Origin: Patellaria atrata CBS 101060
Taxonomy: Eukaryota
Assembly: GCA_010093705.1 (NCBI GenBank)
Contig: MU006092.1
Location: 626,623-690,622 of the forward strand
Length of the DNA stretch: 64,000 nucleotides
Reading direction: 5' to 3'
The notes under the pieces were generated by a model that worked only from the letters and a program-made list of their open reading frames with translations, was not told where the DNA came from and searched no databases. Below, piece after piece: positions 30,938 through 49,495 of this stretch; position 1 is the stretch's first letter; each line of letters begins with the position of its first letter. The translations under genes and the position numbers were made by a program.

Positions 30938-33085
30938 ATGTCTCACGCTACTACGACACCGTCAATACGAATAAATGGTTCTGGTTCTCAGCATAGCCGG
31001 TGCTCGATACCGCGGCGTTCCTCCTCCTATGTCCCTTCATCGATTGCTCCCATGGCAATACCCAATGCTCGAGAACCTCCACCGCCACCGTTACCCCCTC
31101 CCCGTAATATCGGTGATTTAAATAATGGTAACGATCCGGGTTGGCAATGGGGTAATAGCTTCAACGGGTTCGAGGGTAAGAGCGTCAAACCGGGTTCAAG
31201 TCTATTAGGGAACTATCTATCGAAAGAGGAAGACGTTGGGGGAATTGGTGAAAGACCAGACTACGTACTTGCTCGACGGGCTCATTCAATTGCGGCAATT
31301 GGTGGGTTAAGTGTGGATATAAAACGTGGTGGGATAGATTTGGGTGATGAAGATCGTAATTCTTTACCACGGCCGGACGGGTGCGTTTGTATTACTGTCT
31401 TGGTGTACATCATAAAACATTCAGAAATACGCAGCTAACTATGATCTATATAGACTCCAAAGCGAACGCCAGCTTGGACAAAGATCGGTCGCAAACTCTT
31501 CTCAAGCATACGATAAGCAATTACTTTCAAAAATCGGAAATCCTTTGATTCCTACCCGCACGACTGGTTCATCTTTTCTCTCTCCTAGTTCTCAAGATTC
31601 TCCGGTAAATGCTCCAAATGCTCTCGGAAAACTAAACAGCTTGAAACCTTTGTCTGTACCGGAGAGACGGTATAGCGCCATAGATTCCCCCAGTCGTTGG
31701 CCAAATTCTTCCACAAACAGTACCTTGTCCCCTGCTCGGTCGGGATTTCGGAGTCCGATCCTTGAGCATACTCCCATTGAGACGTCAAGTCGACGGTTTG
31801 GAAGCTTTTCGGCAGCAAGTGGTTATGACGAGACAACCTCCACCGCTTCTCACCGCGGGAGCGTCGACCATGGTGTCTTCATGGATCAGGATTTCATCGT
31901 AGAAGAGCATGGCATGCGAGAGCTCAATCTGAACGACAGGAGTCCTTCTGTTTCTGATGAATATCAGCTCGTGACCAAAGGCGGTCTAAAACGCCAAGCA
32001 TCTTCACCGCCTATGGAGGCTTCGCGCGAGGACAGGGCATCTGCATCTGCAACAGGTGGAAATGACCTGTATCACCGTCGCTCGGCGCAGATGTTGGTGA
32101 ATCGTAACTCTCCAGCGAGCAGATTCAACAAACCCAGCTCGGTGTCCTCCGCATCTTCCTTTGGACAACGCACCAGCTCTTATGCGTCGTCGTTTGGCTT
32201 GTCTGTTGCGAGCAGTGCCACCAGCTATAGTGGTGAGAAATTATCACCAAGCGCACTGTCTCCAAGCGCGGAATCGGACTTTGGGCCCGGGTCGCCGTAT
32301 GCAGCTAATACGTCGCTGAATCCCAGTCCACGTGCTTCTGTATCGCACTCACTTCACCAGCGGGTTGTTTCTGAAAACAACGAACCATCATCCCAACCAA
32401 GAAACCGCAAAATGTCGACGGATAGTATAACTTACCCTAGGAAAAAGAGCGTTTCCGGGATTGAGGGACTACACATTTGTGAATGTTGCCCGAAAAAACC
32501 AAAAAAGTTTAACACCGAGGACGAATTACGGTACGTACTAATACCCCTCATACCAATCTCGGCAACGTGCAACGTGCAAATTGCTGACTGCAGCTTAGCA
32601 TACACGAGCTCGAGAAACAATATACCTGCTCTTATTGTCCAAATCGCTTCAAGAACAAAAACGAAGCCGAACGACACCAAAATTCTTTGCACCTTCGTCG
32701 TCATTCTTGGTCCTGTGCTGCTCTAGCTGGCGTTACCGCAGCCTTTCATACGTCAAGCACTCACGGCACGACCGATGTTTGTGGTTACTGCGGAGAGGAT
32801 TTCCCCAATCCACCTAACTGGGAAGCTCGAGCGGAGCACTTGAATCACGTACATAAGTTCGGCGAGTGCAACCAGGCCAAAAAGTTCTTCCGAGCAGATC
32901 ACTTTCGGCAGCATCTAAAACACAGTCATGCTGGCACGAGTGGTAAATGGACCAACATGCTTGAGAATGCTTGTATGAAGGATGAACCCGCACTAAAGGA
33001 ACGATTAAGCTCCGTCAGCTCACTCAGCGGTGGTACTCCTGCAAGCGTCGGTGTTGGAATTGATACCGTCCACGAAGAATCTTAA
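30938..33085 (+). CDS. C2H2 zinc-finger transcription factor (Ser-rich N-terminus, C-terminal finger array)
   Basis: CECCPKKPKKF...HELEKQYTCSYCPNRFKNKNEAERHQNSLH...CGYCG...HLNHVH...FFRADHFRQHLKHSH; introns at about 31381-31453 and 32531-32598; preceded by a non-coding region of about 3.8 kb. Confidence 0.88.
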
Positions 33086-37878: not shown

Positions 37879-38624
37879 TCATGAAGGGTCACCAGTCGGA
37901 ACCGATGGGAAGAGACTCGGGTTCTTCAACCGCTCACGATTACGCTTCGCTTGTTCCGCTTGTCTAATACGCTGGATGCGAATATCGTGGAAATTCCTAA
38001 GGTAGACTTCGTGAGCATAGGGCTATTCTTCGAAAGCACTATACACATAACGGAGAGGGGCTCACTTCTTCAAGGAGTATATGCGGGGTTCCGACACCTC
38101 GGCCTCCTTTTGTGACAACGCCTTGATCTGAACGACTCAGTTCACCGCTATTGGGAAACATTCATGATGGTATAGTACCTTGTCGTCTCTTTCCTTCTCA
38201 TCCGTATCTTCATCATTTGGGTTTGCTTTAACTTCATCTACTTTATCCTCTTTCTTATCATTGGCCTTATCTTTATTCTTGGCTTTTTTTTTCTCCTTCT
38301 TGAGCCGCTGCTTCTCTTCGTACTCTTTCTTGACAAACTCTATCTCTTTTTGTAGTTCCTCTTTCTTCTTACGGTCCTCTACCGCTTTCACCTCTTCTTC
38401 ATCGGGGACAGCGAAACCGCGGTCCTTGAGGTGCCCAGGACATATATGAAACCAATCCTTTGATCTATCAGATATTGATTCTCATCACGGGACTGGGTGA
38501 GTTGCTTGCGTGCCTTATTATCTTCGGTGATAAGGACGTGCGTGGAGGGCTTATAACAGATCCAACACGCCTTCGCGGACGTGTCTGCCACCCGGCGATG
38601 GTGCCATACGTTTGACAGAGCCAT
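37879..38624 (-). CDS. VFA1: Vps4-associated protein Vfa1 (DUF1742)
   Basis: MALSNVWHHRRVADTSAKACWICYKPSTHVLITEDNK/DWFHICPGHLKD, lysine-rich coil, PRIYSLK/NFHDIRIQR...LFPSVPTGDPS; three introns, the first GC-AG (38458-38513). Confidence 0.85.
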
Positions 38625-39227: not shown

Positions 39228-40420
39228 ATGACAACTCTCCCCAAGACATTACCGGCATCTTGGTACTGTAGCCCCCAGCTGTACCAGTTGGAGCGGCGTG
39301 CTGTCTTCAATAAGGCTAGTTTGCATATATCGACTGTGTGAACTTGTTGTTCTAACATTTCACTCTTCACTTTCAGTCATGGTATCTTTTAGGTCCTGTA
39401 ACACGCTTTCAGATCGTTGGAGAAGACGTCCACTATGAGATTGCTCAGGTAGCGCTCATTGTGCGGCGAGAGTCTGATCAAGGAAACGACATTAAGGTCT
39501 ATAACGCTCAGGATGTTCGTTACCTTCGTTACCGGGTATTCCCTCATGTACGATCCAGGGCATCTGACCACATACCTTCCTAGGGGTCCGAACTTCGTAG
39601 ACACTTCACTGCTACCGGACTACTCTTCAGCACTATTTCAGATGATGCTATAGATTTCTACCAGTTTTTCCCCGACCTCGAGCCCATATTAGCTTCAGTC
39701 GATTTCACGAAGCTGCCATATAGGAGGAGCATCAAATATGAAGGAAATTTCAACTGGAAGACAATGTATCCTACGATCTTGCGGATCTTCCAAGGTGACA
39801 AGCAAAGATCTAACCTGTCTTAGGGTTGATGGTTATCAAGAGTGTCTTCATTGCCAGTACACTCATCCATCGTTCTCCGTATACTATCCACCAACGTTCT
39901 ACACGATCTTTAACCACAAGAACTTTTCTCAGCACGTAGCTGACCCGTCGAAACGGTCCGATGGTTTGTTCCTCTATTTCTTCCCCAATTGTACGCTAAA
40001 CGTTTACGGTGGGGGTATGTCCTCCTTCCGCATGTGCCCAACCGAAAATCCCGGAATCACCAGAATGGAGTTCGACTATTACCACTTAGAAACTGGTGAC
40101 AAGTTCGAGGATTACTTCAAATTCGTTCGGCAAGTTGCAATGGAGGATTTTGAGCTTTGCGAAAAGGCTCAGGACAACCTGCAAAACGGTATATACACGG
40201 AAGGGATACTCAACTCAGTCAAAGAAACCGGCGTTGCTTGTAAGTTCTCAAAGGAGTAGGTGATTGTGTACATTCTAACACGTAGCTCTGCGCAGTCTAC
40301 CAACGGCGGGTACTTGATCTTGTTGTTGCGCAGCATGCAGACGAACAGCGCACTTCTCGCGTCCAGATAACTAGCGCAGGTGCCATGCAGAATGAGCTGG
40401 TCGAGCCTGCAGGTGCATGA
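39228..40420 (+). CDS. Rieske-oxygenase (choline/carnitine monooxygenase-like) subunit A: catalytic domain intact, [2Fe-2S] subdomain absent; 315 aa
   Basis: Exons 39228-39314, 39377-39514, 39584-39765, 39824-40239 and 40296-40420 give an open frame: TLPASWY...LERRAVFNK/SWY...IKVYNAQD/GSELRRHFTATG...NFNWKTMVDGYQECLHCQYTHP...YFFPN...EDFELCEKAQ. No CxH...CxxH motif. Confidence 0.88.
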
Positions 40421-40834
40421 TCTGGTTTTCATCTCTTGTCAATCATTATCGTGTTATATGCTTCTAGTCAGGGTTAACGTAAAAAAAATGCAGTTTGGAG
40501 GAGCTTCCATTAATATATCCAGTCCCTGTAGGTGATGAAAAGTTGAGATATTCTTCTGTTATCCCATTTGTTGAAGCTATGCAAGTGAAGGGATTCGTTA
40601 TCCTAATTCGGTAGTCCCCTCTTGACTCAAGTCCTGTCTGCACCTCAACTCCTTACTGGTTCAAGACATTAACACCTGTTCGTAATAGAGTTAATTTTCT
40701 TTCTTGATAACAACATCTAGAAGTCGACGATAAGAATCAGAAATTTAATTTATGTGTATTTAAAGTTTCCTCCGTCGTCGTTGCTAGTTGAAATACAATT
40801 TCCTCTAGAAGCACTGATAGACACCTAGCGCATT

Positions 40835-42447
40835 ATGGACACCCCATTGAATCAATTGGTTATAGTAGGTCTTGTCGGTTCTGCAGTTACGAGCTTCTTA
40901 TTATACCATCATATCCAAGGGAAATTAGCTCGCACCGCGAAACATGGTGGGACATTAAACTTAGATACCTTCATACATCCCTCATATATGAATGACCTGG
41001 ATCAAGTCGACCCAGAGAATTCAATTGAAGTTTCCAAAGAGTCTGATTTTCCCGAGGGATGGTGGACATCTCCGGAGCTATTCGCACTAGAACGACGGTC
41101 CATATTCAGCAAGGTACGCAGCAACTCCAAAAATGAAGACGAGTGGACATTGCTATTCCCAAGACGAGAGCATTAGGTGTGAGTAATGAGCAGAAGGCGA
41201 AGTATACTCACACACTTCAGACATGGCTCCCCATCACCCACATCTCTCGCTTCGCTAAACCTGGATCATACATTTCCCTATCCATCGCGTCGTTTCCCAT
41301 CTTCTTAATCAAGGGGAAAGACAATATCGTCCGCGCTTTCCACAACGTATGCCGGCATCGAGCATATACCGTAGCTCGCAAGTCTGCCGGCTCATCCCTA
41401 GTGCTAGGTTGTAGGTATCATGGTTGGTCGTATGATACACAAGGTAAGCTAGTCAAGGCGCCACAGTTTGAAGGGATTGAGGGCTTTGATAAATCCAAGA
41501 ACTCGCTTTGGGAGATTAAGACTAAAACTGACGAGAGGGGTTTTGTGTGGATAAATATGGATGCTGGAAAAGACGTTGGCGAAGCAGATGTAGAACGGTT
41601 GGGAATGTTTCTAGGAGGGGAAAGGGGGTCAGCGAAGGGAGAGTGGGTCATGGGATGGGATACTGAAGGGAAGTTCGGGTGGAAAGTCGCTGGTGAGTTC
41701 TTCTTTTTGTACTGTACAGTAGCCCTGGTGAAATACTAACTGACGGTTTGGGTAGTTCAACAAGCAGCCCAAGCAGACGAAACTGATACACTACCCAAAG
41801 ACGAAAGCATCATCAATTCGATCCTCAACATCCTCTTACCTTCTACCACTCCTAGTTCTTCTAGACTCACCGTCTTCCCCGTTACTTCCATCGAACTTAT
41901 TCCGAACACCCCGCTCTGGCTTCTGCTTACCGTCTTACCATCATCTGCATCCACTAGTACGGTCAGATGTGAGGTTTTCACGCGTCGACCCGGAGAAAGG
42001 TATAAGGTCACACCAGAACTGCTCAAATCGATTCAAGAAAACGTTACATCCAGAGTCAAAGGACTCGAAGACACATATGCACCGCTCCGGGAGGAGATGG
42101 TCGCTACAGAGATCGATGGTAAGTTTATCCACATCCGTGGGTAGTACTTTGTCCCAAAAGATACTGATAGCATCAGAATCCCAAACGCCGATATTGGCGA
42201 TGCTAAGGGAGCATATCAGACTGGAGCAGCGTGCTGGGAGAGAGATACTTCCTGCTTCCCCGTTAAGGGACGAAGAGAGGGGATGTGGGATTGCGGAGAG
42301 ATGTAGGTTTGCTATTTGATCCCGTGGATTCCCTTTTCTATTTTGGTGCGTTCTAAAGCTGACGGAGATATAGTATGTAGAGAGCTTGATGACTCCGCTG
42401 GTGCTAGGAATAACAATGGTATGAAGTTAGGAGGGCTAGTCTGGTGA
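40835..42447 (+). CDS. Rieske-oxygenase subunit B: N-terminal TM, intact Rieske [2Fe-2S] motif, degenerate catalytic domain
   Basis: Exons 40835-41113, 41221-41692, 41756-42118, about 42171-42302 and 42374-42447. WWTSPELFALERRSIFSK/TW...AFHNVCRHRA...GCRYHGWSY...GKLVKAP; after GWKVA there is no E-x-x-H-x4-H and no EDxxxC Asp motif. Confidence 0.88.
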
Positions 42448-43130
42448 GAGACATGAACATCTATGAAGCGACGAATGGGAGCTCGGAATCAAGGCTGTGC
42501 TGCTGAATGGGTGGTGATAGGTGGATGAAGCGTATATTGCTTGAATTCAGGAACCCGCAGACTGCAGTTGGTGGTTTACAGCCCGAGTTCAAATATATGA
42601 ATAGGATGCAGAATATACGATTACCTTGTATCTTATTCTTATCATTCTCCACCTTAGTCTATAAGGGTTCGTTTATGGCGATTATACCAATTTGCTTTGA
42701 ATAGAAAACATAATTGATCTGATTAGGATCATTAAGAAGGGTTTGGCGTGGGGGGTTGGTTCGGGGTAAATTCTCACATTTACCGAAGTTGGGTTTCCTC
42801 GCAGTAGCGTCATGGTACATACAGACATCTCTGGTACCGACTTTTGACATTTATTCACACTCACCCTATCACCTACTCAACTATCCATACTATCTCTCTC
42901 TCCACGGAAAATTTCCAGAGAGTTCCTATAGCTACAATGATGATCTACTAAATATTCAGGTGTGTTTGCCCCTATATCTGATGCGCGAGGGTTAATACTA
43001 ATGCGCGGCATGTGATAGTTGGCATTTTACCGCATATTGTCCTTCTTACCCTACTATCCCTAACCACCACTTTTTATTTTTGGGAGTACCTGGGTCAGAT
43101 CTGAGGTGCGACGGTTGAACATCCCTAATA

Positions 43131-45523
43131 ATGGCTGCGCGACGAACAGCGAATCGGCTCGTCAGAGGGGCCCTCTACACTGCTGGTGCCACAGCAATTG
43201 GGGGAGGCATACTTTACATCTCCTACAGGCCTAGGGATATCCCGGGCTCGGAGGCGGCCGCGGTACCTCCTCCTACGTATGGAGAAGGGGGTGTATTCCG
43301 CCCTCCGAATTTTCCGGAGATCAAGAGTCGTGAGGAGCAGATTGTGGAGTTGAAGAGGAGCGGTGGGACGGTTACGCGCGCGGTGGAAGCTGCGAAGAGC
43401 AGTTTCCTCAGTAGTATTGGAACGATCTTTGGGAGCAGTCTTGTTGGGGAACAGAATCGGGTGACGGAAACTGAAAAGGAGGAACCGTATGATCTCCTAA
43501 TCATTGGGGGTGGTGCTACTGGGTCTGGGATCGCGGTGGATGCGGCAACACGGGGTCTTAGGGTTGCCGTTGTCGAACGGGACGACTTCAGTAGTGGGAC
43601 GAGTAGTAAGAGCACGAAGCTTGTCCACGGTGGAGTTCGGTATCTGGAAAAAGCCGTTTGGGAATTGGATTACTCTCAGTATGTCGTCAAGCGCGCATGA
43701 TGCTCTTAGCTGATAAGGTCGAAGGTACAAGTTGGTCAGGGAGGCGCTACGTGAAAGGAGGTACTTTCTTGACACCGCACCTCACCTCTCGCAATGGCTA
43801 CCTATCATGATACCCCTGGACAAGTGGTGGAAAGCCCCGTATTTCTGGGCCGGGACTAAGTTCTACGATTTTCTTGCTGGATCTGAGAATATCGAAAGCT
43901 CCTACTTCCTTACCAAAAGCAAAGCGCTAGATGCATTTCCCATGCTCAAAAAGGAAGATTTAGTAGGAGCTCTAGTATACTACGGTATGACTATGTATCT
44001 ACTCCTTCTCCCCGATGATTAAGAGCTGATGGATGAGTAAAGACGGCGCCCACAATGACTCCCGAATGAATGTCTCCCTCGCTATGACTGCGGCCCTCTA
44101 CGGGGCCACCGTGGTGAACTACCTCGAAGTCACCGATCTCATAAAGGACGCATCCGGCCGTGTCAACGGCGCTCGCGTCCGCGATCGCATCTCTGAACGC
44201 AACGGCAAAAATGCAGACGAGTTCACAATCCGCGCAAAAGGTGTAATCAACGCCACGGGTCCCTTCACAGACGCAATCCGCAAGATGGACGAGCCGACCG
44301 CACAGGAGATCGTCGCGCCGAGCTCGGGCGTGCATGTTATCTTGCCCGGTTACTACAGTCCCGCAAACATGGGATTGATAGACCCGAGCACCAGCGATGG
44401 ACGCGTTATTTTCTTCTTACCGTGGCAGGGAAATACGATCGCTGGCACAACGGATAGTCCGACGCATATAACGCAGAACCCCGTTGCAGGCGAGGAAGAA
44501 ATCGATTGGATCCTCTCCGAGATCAGGGGCTACCTACAGCCCGAGATCAACGTTCGGAGAGGCGACGTGTTAGCCGCTTGGAGCGGTATCCGACCTCTCG
44601 TGCGCGACCCCAAAGCCAAAAAAACCGAAGGTCTCGTCCGAAACCACTTAATCACCACCTCGACCTCGGGTCTAATAACCTGCTCCGGGGGAAAATGGAC
44701 GACATACCGGCAAATGGCCGAAGAAACCGTCGACGAGGCCCTTCAAGAATTCAACCTCCGCACCCATCCCCTCACCTCGCCCCCGCGCATCTCTGGCACA
44801 GAAGTTGAGGACGAAAAAGCTCTCTTCGACGGCACCTGCCAAACGCACCAGGTGCGCCTCGTCGGCGCGCACGGTTTCTCCAAAACCCTCTTCATCAACC
44901 TCATCCAGCACTACGGCATCGAGACCGAGGTGGCCAAACACCTCACCACGGCGTACGGCGACCGCGCCTGGACCGTCGCGGCCCTGTGCGCACCCACCGA
45001 GACGCGCTTCCCCGTCCGCGGCAAACGTCTGTCGCCGCTGTACCCGTTTGTCGACGGCGAGGTCAGGTTCGCAGTCCGCCATGAGTACGCGCAGACGGCG
45101 GTGGATGTGTTGGCGCGGCGGACGAGGCTGGCGTTTTTGAACGCGCAGGCCGCATTGGAGGCGCTGCCTGGTGTCATCGATATGATGGCTGAGGAGTTGG
45201 GCTGGGACAAGAAGAGGAGGGGCAGGGAGTGGAAGGAAGCTGTCAGGTTTTTGGGCAGTATGGGGTTGCCGAGGGGGAAGTTGGGGTTGACGAGGGAGGA
45301 GGTCGAGAGGGGGAGGGTCGGCAGGTATGTGGATGAGGAGTATAGGCTTTATGCTAGACATGGTGAGTTTTCTACGGCTTTTTTCTACGGCAAAGCATGA
45401 TTGATGGAACGGCGCGAATGCTAATTGCGAGCAGATAAACCGTCGGAACTCCTGGACTCGGATTCGAAGTTTAGGAGTGGGGAGAATCCGGTGCAGAAGA
45501 GTGATGCGCCGACGACTCAATAG
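43131..45523 (+). CDS. GUT2: Mitochondrial FAD-dependent glycerol-3-phosphate dehydrogenase
   Basis: DLLIIGGGATGSG, GTSSKSTKLVHGGVRYL, YYDG.HNDSR, INATGPF, WSGIRPL, GGKWTTYR and RRTRLAFL; introns near 43679, 43985 and 45363. Confidence 0.96.
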
Positions 45524-47186: not shown

Positions 47187-48488
47187 CTAAAACATCCCAC
47201 CCTCTTCCTCCTCCCTCAAGCCACCATGACTTCTCTTCTTCCAGCCAAGCGAGCTTTTCACTTTTTTCCACCCTGGAATATTGACACTACCCGTGCTGCT
47301 CCTGTCTCCCGGTTGACCTCCGTAGACTTCGTTCCTGCTACTTCTTGGGCTGGGTGTTCCACCGCCAAAACCGTATTCGCTTCCTGGAGGTGTTGTTGGA
47401 GGAGTCATCGGACCGTAACTTCGATCCCCGTTTGAAACTACCGAGCCTGAAGAAGACGGTGTCATCCCATCTGATGCATCCGTCATAACAATATCTTGTG
47501 GTTGTGGTGAGGCCGATGACGACGAGTTCGAAGCGTTACTCCGCGCGTGATGCAGAGGAAAATGTGGACGGGTGGAGAAGGTTCGGGTCAAGCCAGAAAG
47601 CGAGTAGGAGAGCGAACTAGGGGCGGAAGCGCGTTGCTGACTATGTGGAGTTGAAGTAGATATTTGAGGTGCCGTTGAAGGGTGCGAATATTCCTGATTC
47701 TGTTGATGGTGGTATTGATACTGTTGCGATGAACTTTGAGAGTAAGATTGCGGCGGAGACCGGTATACCCGTTCATCGTAGGAGCGTGTGTGCGAGTGAA
47801 AGTTCTCGTCGCTGGTATCATACGCAGAGTCTGGATGTGCTGTCTGGGGACATAGACTGTTAAGAAAAGGAACCAGAACAGACTCTTCCATCAATTCGTA
47901 CACCTTCTCTACTGCTGGGGTGAGTGTATCGGGAGGTGGCGGGGAATAGAGATCTGATTGCGAGAGTATCCTATCACGGACGTCTGAAGGTAGGTTGACT
48001 TCCCGCGGGCCATTGGGTGCTATGTATGCTTCTAATAGCCGTCTCCAAAGCATTTTGACGTATTTGCACTCTTCACTAACTGGTGATATTTGTGCTTGCG
48101 GTGATCTTGCGATCATTTTGTTATAGTGTTTTCGGTACCGTGAGGCATCCATTGTGAACTCTAGGGTTTCTAAACAGTGATTTTGTGAGAGATATGCCAT
48201 AAACGCACTCAGCGTCCATGGTGGAGGAGCGGTGTTCGCTAATATTTCGGTGAGGTTCGGTCTCCGAGGACAGTATGGACCGGTAGCGAACGCTGATCTG
48301 GGTATTGCCACGGTCAAGGGCCGTGAATGTGCGTAATGTGAAGAGGAAGACATGCTGGACAGGCTGTCCACGCTCTCGTCGCTGAACGATGCAGACGAGC
48401 GAGGGGATGATTCTGCAGATGATTCGTGGGAATTGGTATTATTGGTGTTTAAAGTGAGGACGGGTGGATCGGATTTCCTCTTTTTCAT
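47187..48488 (-). CDS. rgsA: Regulator of G-protein signalling, RgsA/Rgs2 type
   Basis: RGS box PNLTEILANTAPPPWTLSAFMAYLSQNHCLETLEF...YIAPNGPREVNLPSDVR...LMEESVLVPF, followed by a Ser/Pro-rich tail with PMTPPTTPP. An upstream exon cannot be excluded. Confidence 0.88.
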   Translation of the reverse strand: MKKRKSDPPVLTLNTNNTNSHESSAESSPRSSASFSDESVDSLSSMSSSSHYAHSRPLTVAIPRSAFATGPYCPRRPNLTEILANTAPPPWTLSAFMAYLSQNHCLETLEFTMDASRYRKHYNKMIARSPQAQISPVSEECKYVKMLWRRLLEAYIAPNGPREVNLPSDVRDRILSQSDLYSPPPPDTLTPAVEKVYELMEESVLVPFLNSLCPQTAHPDSAYDTSDENFHSHTRSYDERVYRSPPQSYSQSSSQQYQYHHQQNQEYSHPSTAPQISTSTPHSQQRASAPSSLSYSLSGLTRTFSTRPHFPLHHARSNASNSSSSASPQPQDIVMTDASDGMTPSSSGSVVSNGDRSYGPMTPPTTPPGSEYGFGGGTPSPRSSRNEVYGGQPGDRSSTGSVNIPGWKKVKSSLGWKKRSHGGLREEEEGGMF

Positions 48489-49495
48489 AACGTTCCTCCA
48501 GAGATCTCTATAGCTTCGACCGGAAGACGACCTCTTCTGCTCGTGATCAACGCAAGTCCAACGTTGTGTCCGCGCACGGCGGATTCGTGGAGCCAGCTTG
48601 TCCTAGAAAGGGAGAGTGGGGATCGTACAACGTGTGGTGCGAGTTGCAACGGAGAAGCAGTTATAATGTACAGTTCTCTTATTATCGTGACATGGGGAGC
48701 GAGTTTCGTTGTGAGCCCCAAGAGATCCGGAAAGCGGGAAGCTGGTGGTACACGCAAGATACGTCCACAACGGTAACTCGCAATGCTTCACTGCAAAGTT
48801 TGCTTTTGATCGACCGCCAGAATGCAGATTGCAGATTGAAAACGATTCACTGCAGGATCGAGGTCGTGTTTGTGTGTCCTCCAACGCAAGTATATGCCCG
48901 TTTGGTGGAAACTAGCGCTGGACCTATCGTACACGCACGCAATTCCAGAACGCCTGTGAAGGTGATATGCTGTGTGAGTATGCCGGGTGTGCAACAGAAG
49001 GAGAGCTACCCGGATAGATGCAGACGCTTACGCTCAGCGCTCAGCGGTAGACAGTCAACAGGAATCAAGTATGCTAGGGCTATTAATTGATAATGCAGAA
49101 AACCGTGGCAAAGCAACAGGTACGATTAGTGAGCCGTAATTAGGACGTTGAGGCTGAAGCCTGGGTATGTTGGCTGATGTATGCGTCGTGGAAGCGACCG
49201 GTGCGAAACGCGCAGATGGGGTTAGATAGAGACACGAGGCTGAAAAGTCCAATCCCGGGCGCCGGCGGTGATGATGAAGATGATGAGGATGATGCGGCGA
49301 GGTGGGAGATTGTAGTTTTAAGTTGAAAGACAAAGGATGGGTAAGCAGGAAGTAGATAGATTTGTGAGTAGGCGGATGATGATTGATAGTATGTAAGAAA
49401 AGCAGCGAAGCAGTAGAACTACGCTTTCTAAGGGTCCTAGGTACAGTACAGTATGATGAGAGTGTACAGTACAACGGCGGGAAGGGTCCTTCTTT

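Follow-up and report, generated by a model that had tools for sequence, protein, structure and literature searches.

Rieske oxygenases are by textbook account alpha3 or alpha3beta3 oligomers that carry both metal centres on every alpha chain. To our knowledge, very few natural enzymes place the two centres on different chains (the chlorophyllide a oxygenase of certain algae and the bacterial NdmCDE). How, then, should two neighbouring fungal genes be understood that both encode alpha subunits of this family, one with the mononuclear iron site and no Rieske cluster, the other with the cluster and no iron site? The two genes, here called A and B, lie in a stretch of 64,000 nucleotides (nt) from Patellaria atrata CBS 101060 (NCBI GenBank assembly GCA_010093705.1, contig MU006092.1, positions 626,623 to 690,622 of the forward strand), which we refer to as the window and on which all positions below are counted. 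An earlier note, made from the letters of this stretch, had proposed that they form one heteromeric enzyme. According to our analysis, A and B are probably the two subunits of one hetero-oligomeric Rieske non-heme-iron monooxygenase, related to the quaternary-ammonium (CntA/Stc2/GbcA, Group V) lineage.

One metal site in each gene

The iron site of A is encoded by exon 4, the translation of which (...NWKT-M-VDGYQECLHCQYTH...AMEDFELCEKAQ...) matches the Pfam family Ring_hydroxyl_A (PF00848) with E 9.6e-14 and 52.2 bits (cut-off 24.9). The Fe(II) site is kept, with His-His-Asp, the bridging Glu, a CntA-like Cys pair and the Tyr. Rieske ligands of the form C-x-H...C-x-x-H are absent from the window's gene A; the approximately 50 residues that carry the [2Fe-2S] ligands are gone. 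Gene B shows the reverse. Its exon 2 (...FHNVCRHRAY...LGCRYHGWSYD...) matches the Pfam family Rieske (PF00355; E 2e-15, 56.9 bits, cut-off 20.3) and its exon 3 reaches PF00848 only at E 0.1, under the cut-off. Neither a His pair behind FNWK nor an Fe motif is found in the window's gene B, the loss of the Asp ligand being judged from a hand alignment. Of the features that define a canonical one-chain alpha subunit, the Rieske ligands are thus found only in B and the 2-His-1-carboxylate site only in A, and neither protein appears from its sequence to be such a subunit.

Both genes open in the same way. In A, SWYCSPQLYQLERRAVFNK continues behind the first intron with SW, in B GWWTSPELFALERRSIFSK is followed by TW, and both fit the motif W-[YW]-x-S-P-x-L-x-x-LERR-x-[VI]-F-x-K, with a phase-0 intron behind the Lys. 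The earlier note had described two same-strand neighbours about 410 base pairs (bp) apart, with a common W-Y/W-x-S-P-x-L-x-x-LERR motif and a phase-0 intron at the same K/xW position, a mononuclear-iron set without Rieske ligands in A, CRH...CRYH without mononuclear-iron ligands in B, and two open frames. All of these points hold, with both end coordinates correct and a gap of 414 bp; for A, the frame is open given the removal of a 69-nt intron that contains an in-frame TAG.

This intron (39515-39583) has GT..AG ends and a CTGAC branch site, and only with its removal is the reading frame of A open. Its 23 codons correspond exactly to the gap left by an orthologous A protein in tblastn, and there are no frameshifts in A. 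The donor of intron 1, GCTAGT, is common to gene A and its three closest metagenome loci (L001-L003); close relatives thus have this GC donor, too, and it is not a fresh lesion. Of the 45 metagenome loci examined at this site, a GT donor is present in 34 and an intron is lacking in 8. The earlier note had also raised the possibility of an extra exon restoring the missing ligands. At 17 metagenome loci the Rieske-less gap is read through in one uninterrupted frame (A residues 55-150) without C-x-H or C-x-x-H; therefore, a hidden exon cannot account for the ligands missing from A. For B, locus L020 aligns with residues 2-358 in one stop-free frame and the His pair is absent after FNWK.

The window's B protein is identical to the NCBI record [quoted passage not shown] (P0124), except for one stretch that is spliced out of the record's model. 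There, CRYHGWSYDTQGKLV (window 41398-41442, within B exon 2) is replaced by a single Phe, and the second half of the Rieske motif is lost. Judged from the sequence, CRYHGW... was taken out by mistake as a mini-intron; this seems to be an annotation error, owing to which the record seems to have no Pfam Rieske match.

Conservation and linkage of the two genes

Relatives were counted among the best 120 matches of each search and not among all matches. Searching longer proteins (listed from at least 243 amino acids, aa) with A exon 4 gave 262 matches at E <= 0.001 from 300 candidates, the best 120 being 75-90% identical; 103 of these 120 are unfused relatives of 244-372 aa (<400 aa). None of the 103 carries the Rieske motif C-x-H...C-x-x-H, and 96 carry NWK..E..H....H. 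The search with B exon 2 gave 334 matches from 523 candidates, with 111 listed proteins additional to the A set. The Rieske motif is present in 110 of the 111, the sole exception being P0124 with its wrongly removed CRYH, and the Fe motif is present in none. A looser regular expression for the Rieske motif matched one of the 103 A proteins (P0067, at residue 202 in the C-terminal region), which we dismissed as a chance match.

The alignment of 43 A orthologues shows no variation at E142, C143, H145, C146, H150, E243 and D244, and conservation of at least 90% at Y140; across 39 aligned B orthologues, C74, R75, H76, C94, Y96, H97 and N183-W184-K185 are invariant. Mean pairwise identity is 0.81 in the catalytic domain of A and 0.58 in its N-terminal remnant, and 0.64 in the Rieske domain of B and 0.24 in its pseudo-catalytic sheet. 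Neutral evolution, which the earlier note had named as a possible outcome contrary to its proposal, does not fit the 81% and 64% of the two site-bearing domains, and A exon 4 is 88-90% identical to orthologues of other orders. Compared as profiles (hhalign), A and B align with 98.7% probability (E 4e-16, 203 columns), and the gap in A sits exactly over the cluster loops of B (...NVCRHRAY...GCRYHGWSYD...KAP). The reciprocal loss is a conserved state, not decay. Moreover, an invariant bridging Glu in a protein without its own cluster implies that the cluster is supplied in trans.

Among the listed matches, Dothideomycetes, Eurotiomycetes and Leotiomycetes have relatives of both genes, and some Sordariomycetes have B-like genes as well; named matches include Aspergillus, Penicillium, Histoplasma, Blastomyces and Paracoccidioides. 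Current records either give A and B separate names ("Bet v1-like protein", "ISP domain-containing protein") or fuse them wrongly. Seventeen of the best 120 A matches are models of 587-820 aa, and both motifs occur in 16 of these, in every case with the iron motif ahead of the Rieske motif (P0019, P0031, P0032, P0040-P0046, P0053, P0064, P0074, P0076, P0079, P0102). In P0019, the natural C terminus of A is followed by sequence that forms the upstream region and start of B in relatives. We read the fused models as gene-prediction artefacts that preserve the gene order of the window, real read-through or bicistronic transcripts being possible. Another long model, P0235 (Fusarium proliferatum, 827 aa), joins an A-like N-terminal part (55% identical, with the iron motif and without the Rieske motif) to about 500 unrelated residues rich in low complexity.

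At the DNA level, metagenome contigs scanned with A exon 4 yielded 76 loci, of which 46 were informative, 29 had flanks that were too short and one had no A match in BLAST; a locus without B was scored only given at least 2.6 kb upstream and 2 kb downstream. B adjoins A in 40 of the 46 informative loci. The arrangement is tandem in 27, with the B Rieske exon 508-1127 bp downstream of A exon 4 on the same strand, and head-to-head in 13, with this exon 1197-1641 bp upstream on the opposite strand (L019, L020, L026, L031, L041, L042, L045, L046, L048, L050, L053, L055, L057; 11 non-redundant). The latter suggests a shared bidirectional promoter in these lineages. Clustering the 74 motif-bearing loci at 97% exon-4 DNA identity left 53 groups (17 tandem, 11 divergent, 3 without B and 22 uninformative), i.e., adjacency in 28 of 31 informative non-redundant groups. 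Adjacency that survives the change from tandem to head-to-head argues for co-function and is hard to explain otherwise.

The protein records agree with this. Among the listed matches, A and B have consecutive locus tags in six species: Polytolypa (AJ80_06583/06584), Rasamsonia (VTN77DRAFT_5422/5421), Monascus (MPDQ_001500/001499), Penicillium malachiteum (N7493_009130/009129), Aspergillus niger (IFM50267_003062/003061) and Neocucurbitaria (Nn.00g062760/062750). Including these six, a hand count gave 19 named species with A and B matches on contigs of the same length. Together with the metagenome loci and the 16 models fused in the order A then B, these species support the co-occurrence of Rieske-less A and catalytic-less B.

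Two accessory signals are also distributed unevenly. A hydrophobic N-terminal 19-mer is present in 65 of the 70 B orthologues with a long N terminus and in only 2 of 103 A proteins, from which B may be a membrane-anchored, cytosol-facing Fe-S protein and A its soluble partner. Furthermore, 73 of the 103 B models shorter than 500 aa end in Trp (LDW 42, LAW 11, LEW 5, LVW 4, others 11), and none of the 103 A models does, two ending in Phe. A C-terminal [LIM]-[DES]-[WF] tripeptide recruits the cytosolic Fe-S assembly (CIA) targeting complex, and the carriers of this signal (TCR, for targeting complex recognition) include fungal choline monooxygenases among bis-His [2Fe-2S] clients, as described by the Perlstein and Pierik laboratories (bioRxiv 10.1101/2023.05.19.541488). 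Full fits to the tripeptide are LDW (42), LEW (5), MEW (2), IEW (1), LSW (1) and MSW (1); LAW and LVW deviate at the middle position. With the Trp tail on B and not on A, the Fe-S delivery signal therefore stayed with the subunit that kept the cluster.

The positions of both genes, their exons and the genes around them are collected in Table 1.

Table 1. Genes A and B and neighbouring genes in the window
Feature	Position	Strand	Remarks
Gene A	39228-40420	+	ATG 39228, stop 40418-40420; five exons, 315 aa
Gene A exon 1	39228..39314	+	MTT...LERRAVFNK; conserved N-terminal helix of the alpha-subunit fold
Gene A intron 1	39315..39376	+	62 nt, phase 0, GC-AG; donor GCTAGT, branch TTCTAAC
Gene A exon 2	39377..39514	+	remnant Rieske-domain beta-strands, stopping where C-x-H would come; predicted local distance difference test (pLDDT) >90 in the model here
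Gene A intron 2	39515..39583	+	69 nt, GTTCGT...CTGAC...CCTAG; in-frame TAG 39581-39583; site of the lost cluster-binding loops
Gene A exon 3	39584..39765	+	GSELRRHF...EGNFNWKT-M; catalytic domain begins
Gene A exon 4	39824..40239	+	mononuclear-iron site: Tyr, bridging Glu, Cys-x-His-Cys, second His (YQECLHCQYTH), Asp ligand region (MEDFELC)
Gene A exon 5	40296..40420	+	stop 40418-40420; tail without C-terminal Trp
Intergenic spacer	40421..40834	.	414 bp, A stop to B ATG
Gene B	40835-42447	+	ATG 40835, stop 42445-42447; five exons, 437 aa
Gene B exon 1	40835..41113	+	GWWTSPELFALERRSIFSK, preceded by a hydrophobic N-terminal stretch (residues 5-23, Kyte-Doolittle mean 1.83)
Gene B exon 2	41221..41692	+	Rieske [2Fe-2S] domain, CRH...CRYH; ends in conserved (F/G)-W-K, no His pair after it
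Gene B exon 3	41756..42118	+	degenerate catalytic-like beta-sheet without Fe ligands
Gene B exon 4	42177..42302	+	conserved C-terminal helix (LREHIRLEQRAGREILPA)
Gene B exon 5	42374..42447	+	ends ...GGLVW-stop, the C-terminal L-x-W tail
C2H2 zinc-finger protein	31419-33082	+	neighbour
Vfa1 (Vps4-associated protein)	38140-38478	-	neighbour
Glycerol-3-phosphate dehydrogenase-like gene	43122-45397	+	neighbour; DAO + DAO_C
RGS-domain protein	47190-48599	-	neighbour

Family placement, the proposed enzyme and its rivals

By sequence, the nearest solved structures are CntA of Acinetobacter baumannii (PDB 6Y8J, 6Y9D; E 1e-9 for an A orthologue and 3e-28 for a B orthologue), the Ruegeria protein 3N0Q and stachydrine demethylase Stc2 (3VCA), and CntA and Stc2 are also nearest by predicted fold. 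AlphaFold2 models of the Lepidopterella orthologues retrieved CntA first and Stc2 next, both for A (pLDDT 81.7, predicted template modelling score (pTM) 0.82; E 1e-16, template modelling (TM) score 0.71) and for B (pLDDT 82.6, pTM 0.78; E 5e-20, 320-336 columns). For the two-domain fold of Rieske beta-domain and helix-grip catalytic domain, the matches of both models to CntA, to Stc2 and to many alpha subunits have a probability of 1.00. B is accordingly modelled as a complete alpha-subunit fold with a dead pocket, and A is predicted to be an alpha subunit whose N-terminal beta-domain is shortened yet still well folded.

In the HMMER alignment, D-G-Y-Q-E-C-L-H-C-Q-Y-T-H of A lies over D-N-Y-M-E-C-Y-H-C-G-P-A-H of CntA, pairing Y140, E142, C143, H145, C146 and H150 with Y203, E205, C206, H208, C209 and H213. 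In CntA, Y203 makes a pi-cation contact with the trimethylammonium group, E205 is the glutamate bridge from the Rieske centre of the neighbouring subunit to the iron, C206 and C209 are the paired cysteines peculiar to some Group V enzymes, and the iron ligands are H208, H213 and D323 (PMC7948474, PMC10952381). A has counterparts of the six aligned residues and the Asp ligand region, and B has the four Rieske ligands. The active-site set of Group V (Cys-x-x-Cys pair, bridging Glu and an aromatic residue for trimethylammonium) is thus present in A as Y-Q-E-C-L-H-C. According to PMC7948474, the two centres of one CntA chain are 44 Å apart and the cluster lies 12.2 Å from the iron of the next subunit via E205; with this inter-subunit geometry, a cluster-less and an iron-less chain can therefore still make a productive interface.

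CntA and Stc2 differ from the fungal pair in being single polypeptides with both sites, assembled into head-to-tail alpha3 homotrimers, whereas the fungal sites are split over two genes. Identity is low, at about 17-22% in structural alignments, B adds a predicted membrane anchor and a eukaryotic Fe-S targeting tail, and the bacterial reductase CntB has no evident counterpart beside the fungal pair.

In the enzyme that we infer, including its physical complex, stoichiometry and direction of electron flow, B would be the electron-input subunit. Its N-terminal hydrophobic helix would serve as membrane anchor, possibly in the endoplasmic reticulum, its C-terminal L-x-W tail would recruit the cytosolic Fe-S assembly machinery that loads the [2Fe-2S] cluster of the Rieske domain, and its catalytic-like domain, having lost the iron site, would act as a scaffold only. 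A would be the soluble catalytic subunit, with the cluster-binding loops lost and the 2-His-1-carboxylate Fe(II) site, bridging Glu, Cys-x-x-Cys pair and Tyr retained. B would receive electrons from a reductase, the anchor suggesting a microsomal one, and pass them from its cluster over the invariant Glu of A to the iron of A across the subunit interface; A would then oxidise a quaternary amine by N-dealkylation or C-N cleavage.

Several observations weigh against this reading. The symmetric head-to-tail trimer, the usual ring of Rieske oxygenases, is impossible from two reciprocally dead subunits. B is absent nearby in 6 of the 46 informative metagenome loci (L058, L067, L068, L071, L072, L073). 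Five of these, L067, L068, L071, L072 (58% identity in exon 4) and L073 (67%), hold full-length A-like genes with no B within about 4.4-5 kb on either side and look like a separate A-like Rieske-less paralogue, so a Rieske-less catalytic subunit can exist unlinked. Rieske-less relatives without a known partner also occur in several further fungal lineages. The window's own B tail, L-V-W, fits the targeting tripeptide at its first and last positions and has Val instead of Asp, Glu or Ser before the final Trp, and 30 of the 103 B models have no terminal Trp; most of the latter stop at or before the last short exon, and we read them as incomplete gene models. Beside the pair, the window has no gene for a reductase, a transporter or amine catabolism, and the neighbours offer no functional clue. 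Finally, the best NCBIfam model, GbcA (NF058607), scored only 40.6 bits for an A orthologue and 95.2 bits for a B orthologue against a cut-off of 670, canonical fungal relatives reaching 118-133 bits. By sequence, the pair is related to GbcA without being an equivalog of any characterised enzyme. Because the score is so far below the cut-off, the assignment of a substrate class is drawn from active-site residues and nearest structures only, on which basis the quaternary-ammonium lineage is the best reading.

As to the metagenome loci, L058 is a 5'-truncated A copy starting at about residue 68, without B, and its near-identical relative L057 has B; L056 has a stop within the conserved W-F-C-S-P motif. 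Both may be decayed copies or sequencing errors.

Part of this evidence could be accommodated if B were a dedicated membrane-bound Rieske-type electron carrier that docks transiently on an A homo-oligomer, like a ferredoxin or like the extra Rieske domain of NdmD for NdmC, without a stable mixed ring. NdmC, a catalytic subunit that lacks a Rieske cluster, makes use of one on another protein (PMC4408171), the symmetric A/B ring is geometrically awkward, the still well-conserved N-terminal remnant of A (0.58) could hold an A-A ring, and the unlinked A-like paralogues fit as well. However, B keeps a complete alpha-subunit fold, with about 320-400 columns aligned to CntA and Stc2 including a folded pseudo-catalytic domain, its C-terminal helices are conserved although superfluous for a mere carrier, and the invariant FNWK segment at the domain junction is common to both proteins; we therefore consider such a carrier unlikely. 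Less likely still, in our estimate, is that A and B are neighbours without a shared function, A being fed by another donor such as a canonical paralogue or a ferredoxin and B being a pseudo-enzyme or redox sensor. Canonical two-site relatives in fungi (Gloeophyllum, Colletotrichum, Fusarium, Rhizoctonia and the yeast CMO1 family) could in principle donate a cluster, and some A-like genes lack a B neighbour, but against this account stand the adjacency in two orientations in nearly all non-redundant informative loci (28/31), the complementarity of the losses with strong constraint on each surviving site, and the confinement of anchor and Fe-S signal to B.

It is very improbable that one or both window copies are decaying duplicates (pseudogenes) that complement each other by chance. 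Such decay might be suspected from the non-canonical GC donor of A, from the in-frame TAG that persists unless the 69-nt intron is removed, and from the search results: no protein among the 120 listed matches of at least 243 aa is identical to A exon 4, so these matches do not include a full-length A model from this genome. Yet the relatives examined are all Rieske-less or Fe-less in the same way, frameshifts are absent, orthologues skip the same 69 nt, the GC donor recurs at three related loci, and the identity of A exon 4 to orthologues from other orders is as high as given above. Taken with the reservations gathered above, a single hetero-oligomeric monooxygenase built from A and B remains the probable reading.

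Known split enzymes, origin of the pair and its meaning

A two-gene ("heterodimeric") chlorophyllide a oxygenase (CAO) of Micromonas and other Mamiellophyceae was reportedly described by Kunugi et al. 2013. The earlier note had named this precedent, and the published accounts agree with it: the Rieske cluster remains with one gene and the mononuclear iron with its partner, activity depends on both, and electron transfer between neighbouring subunits makes the split workable (PMC9615114; bioRxiv 10.1101/2025.02.10.637544), a "trimer of dimers" being suggested in PMC9615114. As in the fungal pair, which is known from sequences, the Rieske and iron sites are located on two separate, related gene products. 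In contrast, the algal enzyme belongs to another Rieske oxygenase lineage, the plastid CAO of green algae with a chlorophyll substrate, whereas the fungal pair is similar to choline monooxygenase (CMO) and CntA and would face the cytosol; only in the fungi are the two genes tightly linked in the genome, with anchor and CIA signal on the Rieske subunit alone. By analogy, the pair is best read as an obligate two-gene quaternary-amine monooxygenase and a fungal counterpart of the split CAO of Micromonas. The N7-demethylase NdmCDE of Pseudomonas putida CBB5 offers a second comparison, since NdmC is a non-heme-iron subunit without a Rieske cluster and the cluster is on another polypeptide (PMC4408171). 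There, however, the Rieske domain is fused to the reductase NdmD and the glutathione S-transferase (GST)-like NdmE is required, whereas the fungal donor would be a complete alpha-subunit paralogue with a dead catalytic domain. No prior description of a reciprocally defective fungal pair was found in full-text literature searches, most subscription journals being outside their reach.

Within fungi, CMO1 of Scheffersomyces stipitis, a putative choline monooxygenase, belongs to the same CMO-like clade and has the C-terminal Trp signal. By genetic evidence, CMO1 is needed for growth when choline is the nitrogen source, and the proposed products are trimethylamine and glycolaldehyde (PMC5816127); "CMO-like" proteins of fungi were noted as biochemically uncharacterised (PMC6157903). 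Unlike A and B, the CMO1 proteins carry both sites on one canonical chain of about 445 aa. The A and B clades, each fully supported and with one site only, both lie outside the yeast CMO1 clade; therefore, the substrate of the pair need not be choline.

An A orthologue searched against 1.84 billion representatives gave 1193 matches. Canonical single-chain relatives with both sites were found in Basidiomycota (Gloeophyllum, Dacryopinax, Rhizoctonia), Sordariomycetes (Colletotrichum, Fusarium) and budding yeasts (the CMO1 family). Two quick maximum-likelihood trees place A and B, each as a clade with full support, within one fungal clade (Shimodaira-Hasegawa-like approximate likelihood ratio test, SH-aLRT, 97 and 99), and do not settle their mutual position. 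Forcing A and B together costs 9.1 log-likelihood units (approximately unbiased (AU) test, p 0.2), by which an origin through direct duplication is possible, being neither supported nor rejected. The stems of the two clades are long (0.92 and 0.74), so long-branch effects are likely. Of the complementary subfunctionalisation that the earlier note had envisaged, the reciprocal loss stands, and descent from one tandem duplication is no more than a possibility. Rieske-less proteins of Priceomyces and Ascoidea are sister to A; because these are budding yeasts, A is older than the split between Pezizomycotina and Saccharomycotina.

One-site forms also occur elsewhere among the relatives. In or next to the CMO1 clade of budding yeasts lie Rieske-only forms that lack the Fe motif (P0527 of Ascoidea, P0331, P0419), iron-only forms that lack Rieske ligands (P0256 of Trichomonascus, P0259) and P0247 of Ascoidea; they may represent a second, independent split. 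For P0331, whose relatives are canonical yeast CMO1, a gene-model error was considered and set aside, as P0419, 74% identical, has the same loss, which may be real. Further iron-only relatives without Rieske ligands (P0277, P0294, P0313, P0318, P0301, P0322, P0340) come from the chytrid-grade fungi Hyaloraphidium and Gonapodya, from Rhodosporidiobolus, and from Fusarium equiseti, Didymella and Clonostachys, the forms of the last three being further paralogues. Among 14 Rieske-less proteins checked, three end in Trp (P0277, P0322, P0263). A tentative idea, which we hold to be less likely than not, is that the split into cluster-only and iron-only paralogues is a recurrent evolutionary route in fungi and no one-off event. 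If each one-site form pairs with a cluster donor, the inter-subunit electron path would repeatedly have let alpha3 homotrimers become obligate hetero-oligomers, in which the CIA signal and the membrane anchor would be needed on the Fe-S subunit only, tethering a soluble catalytic partner near microsomal reductases.

The pair would add an ancient and widespread eukaryotic example of a split Rieske oxygenase. It would provide a natural system for inter-subunit electron transfer with donor and acceptor on separate chains, a case of a pseudo-enzyme domain retained as scaffold, and a clean contrast, within a single family, bearing on the rule by which the C-terminal Trp signal accompanies the Fe-S ligands. 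For the filamentous fungi themselves, it points to an unassigned step in the catabolism of quaternary amines of the choline, betaine or carnitine type.

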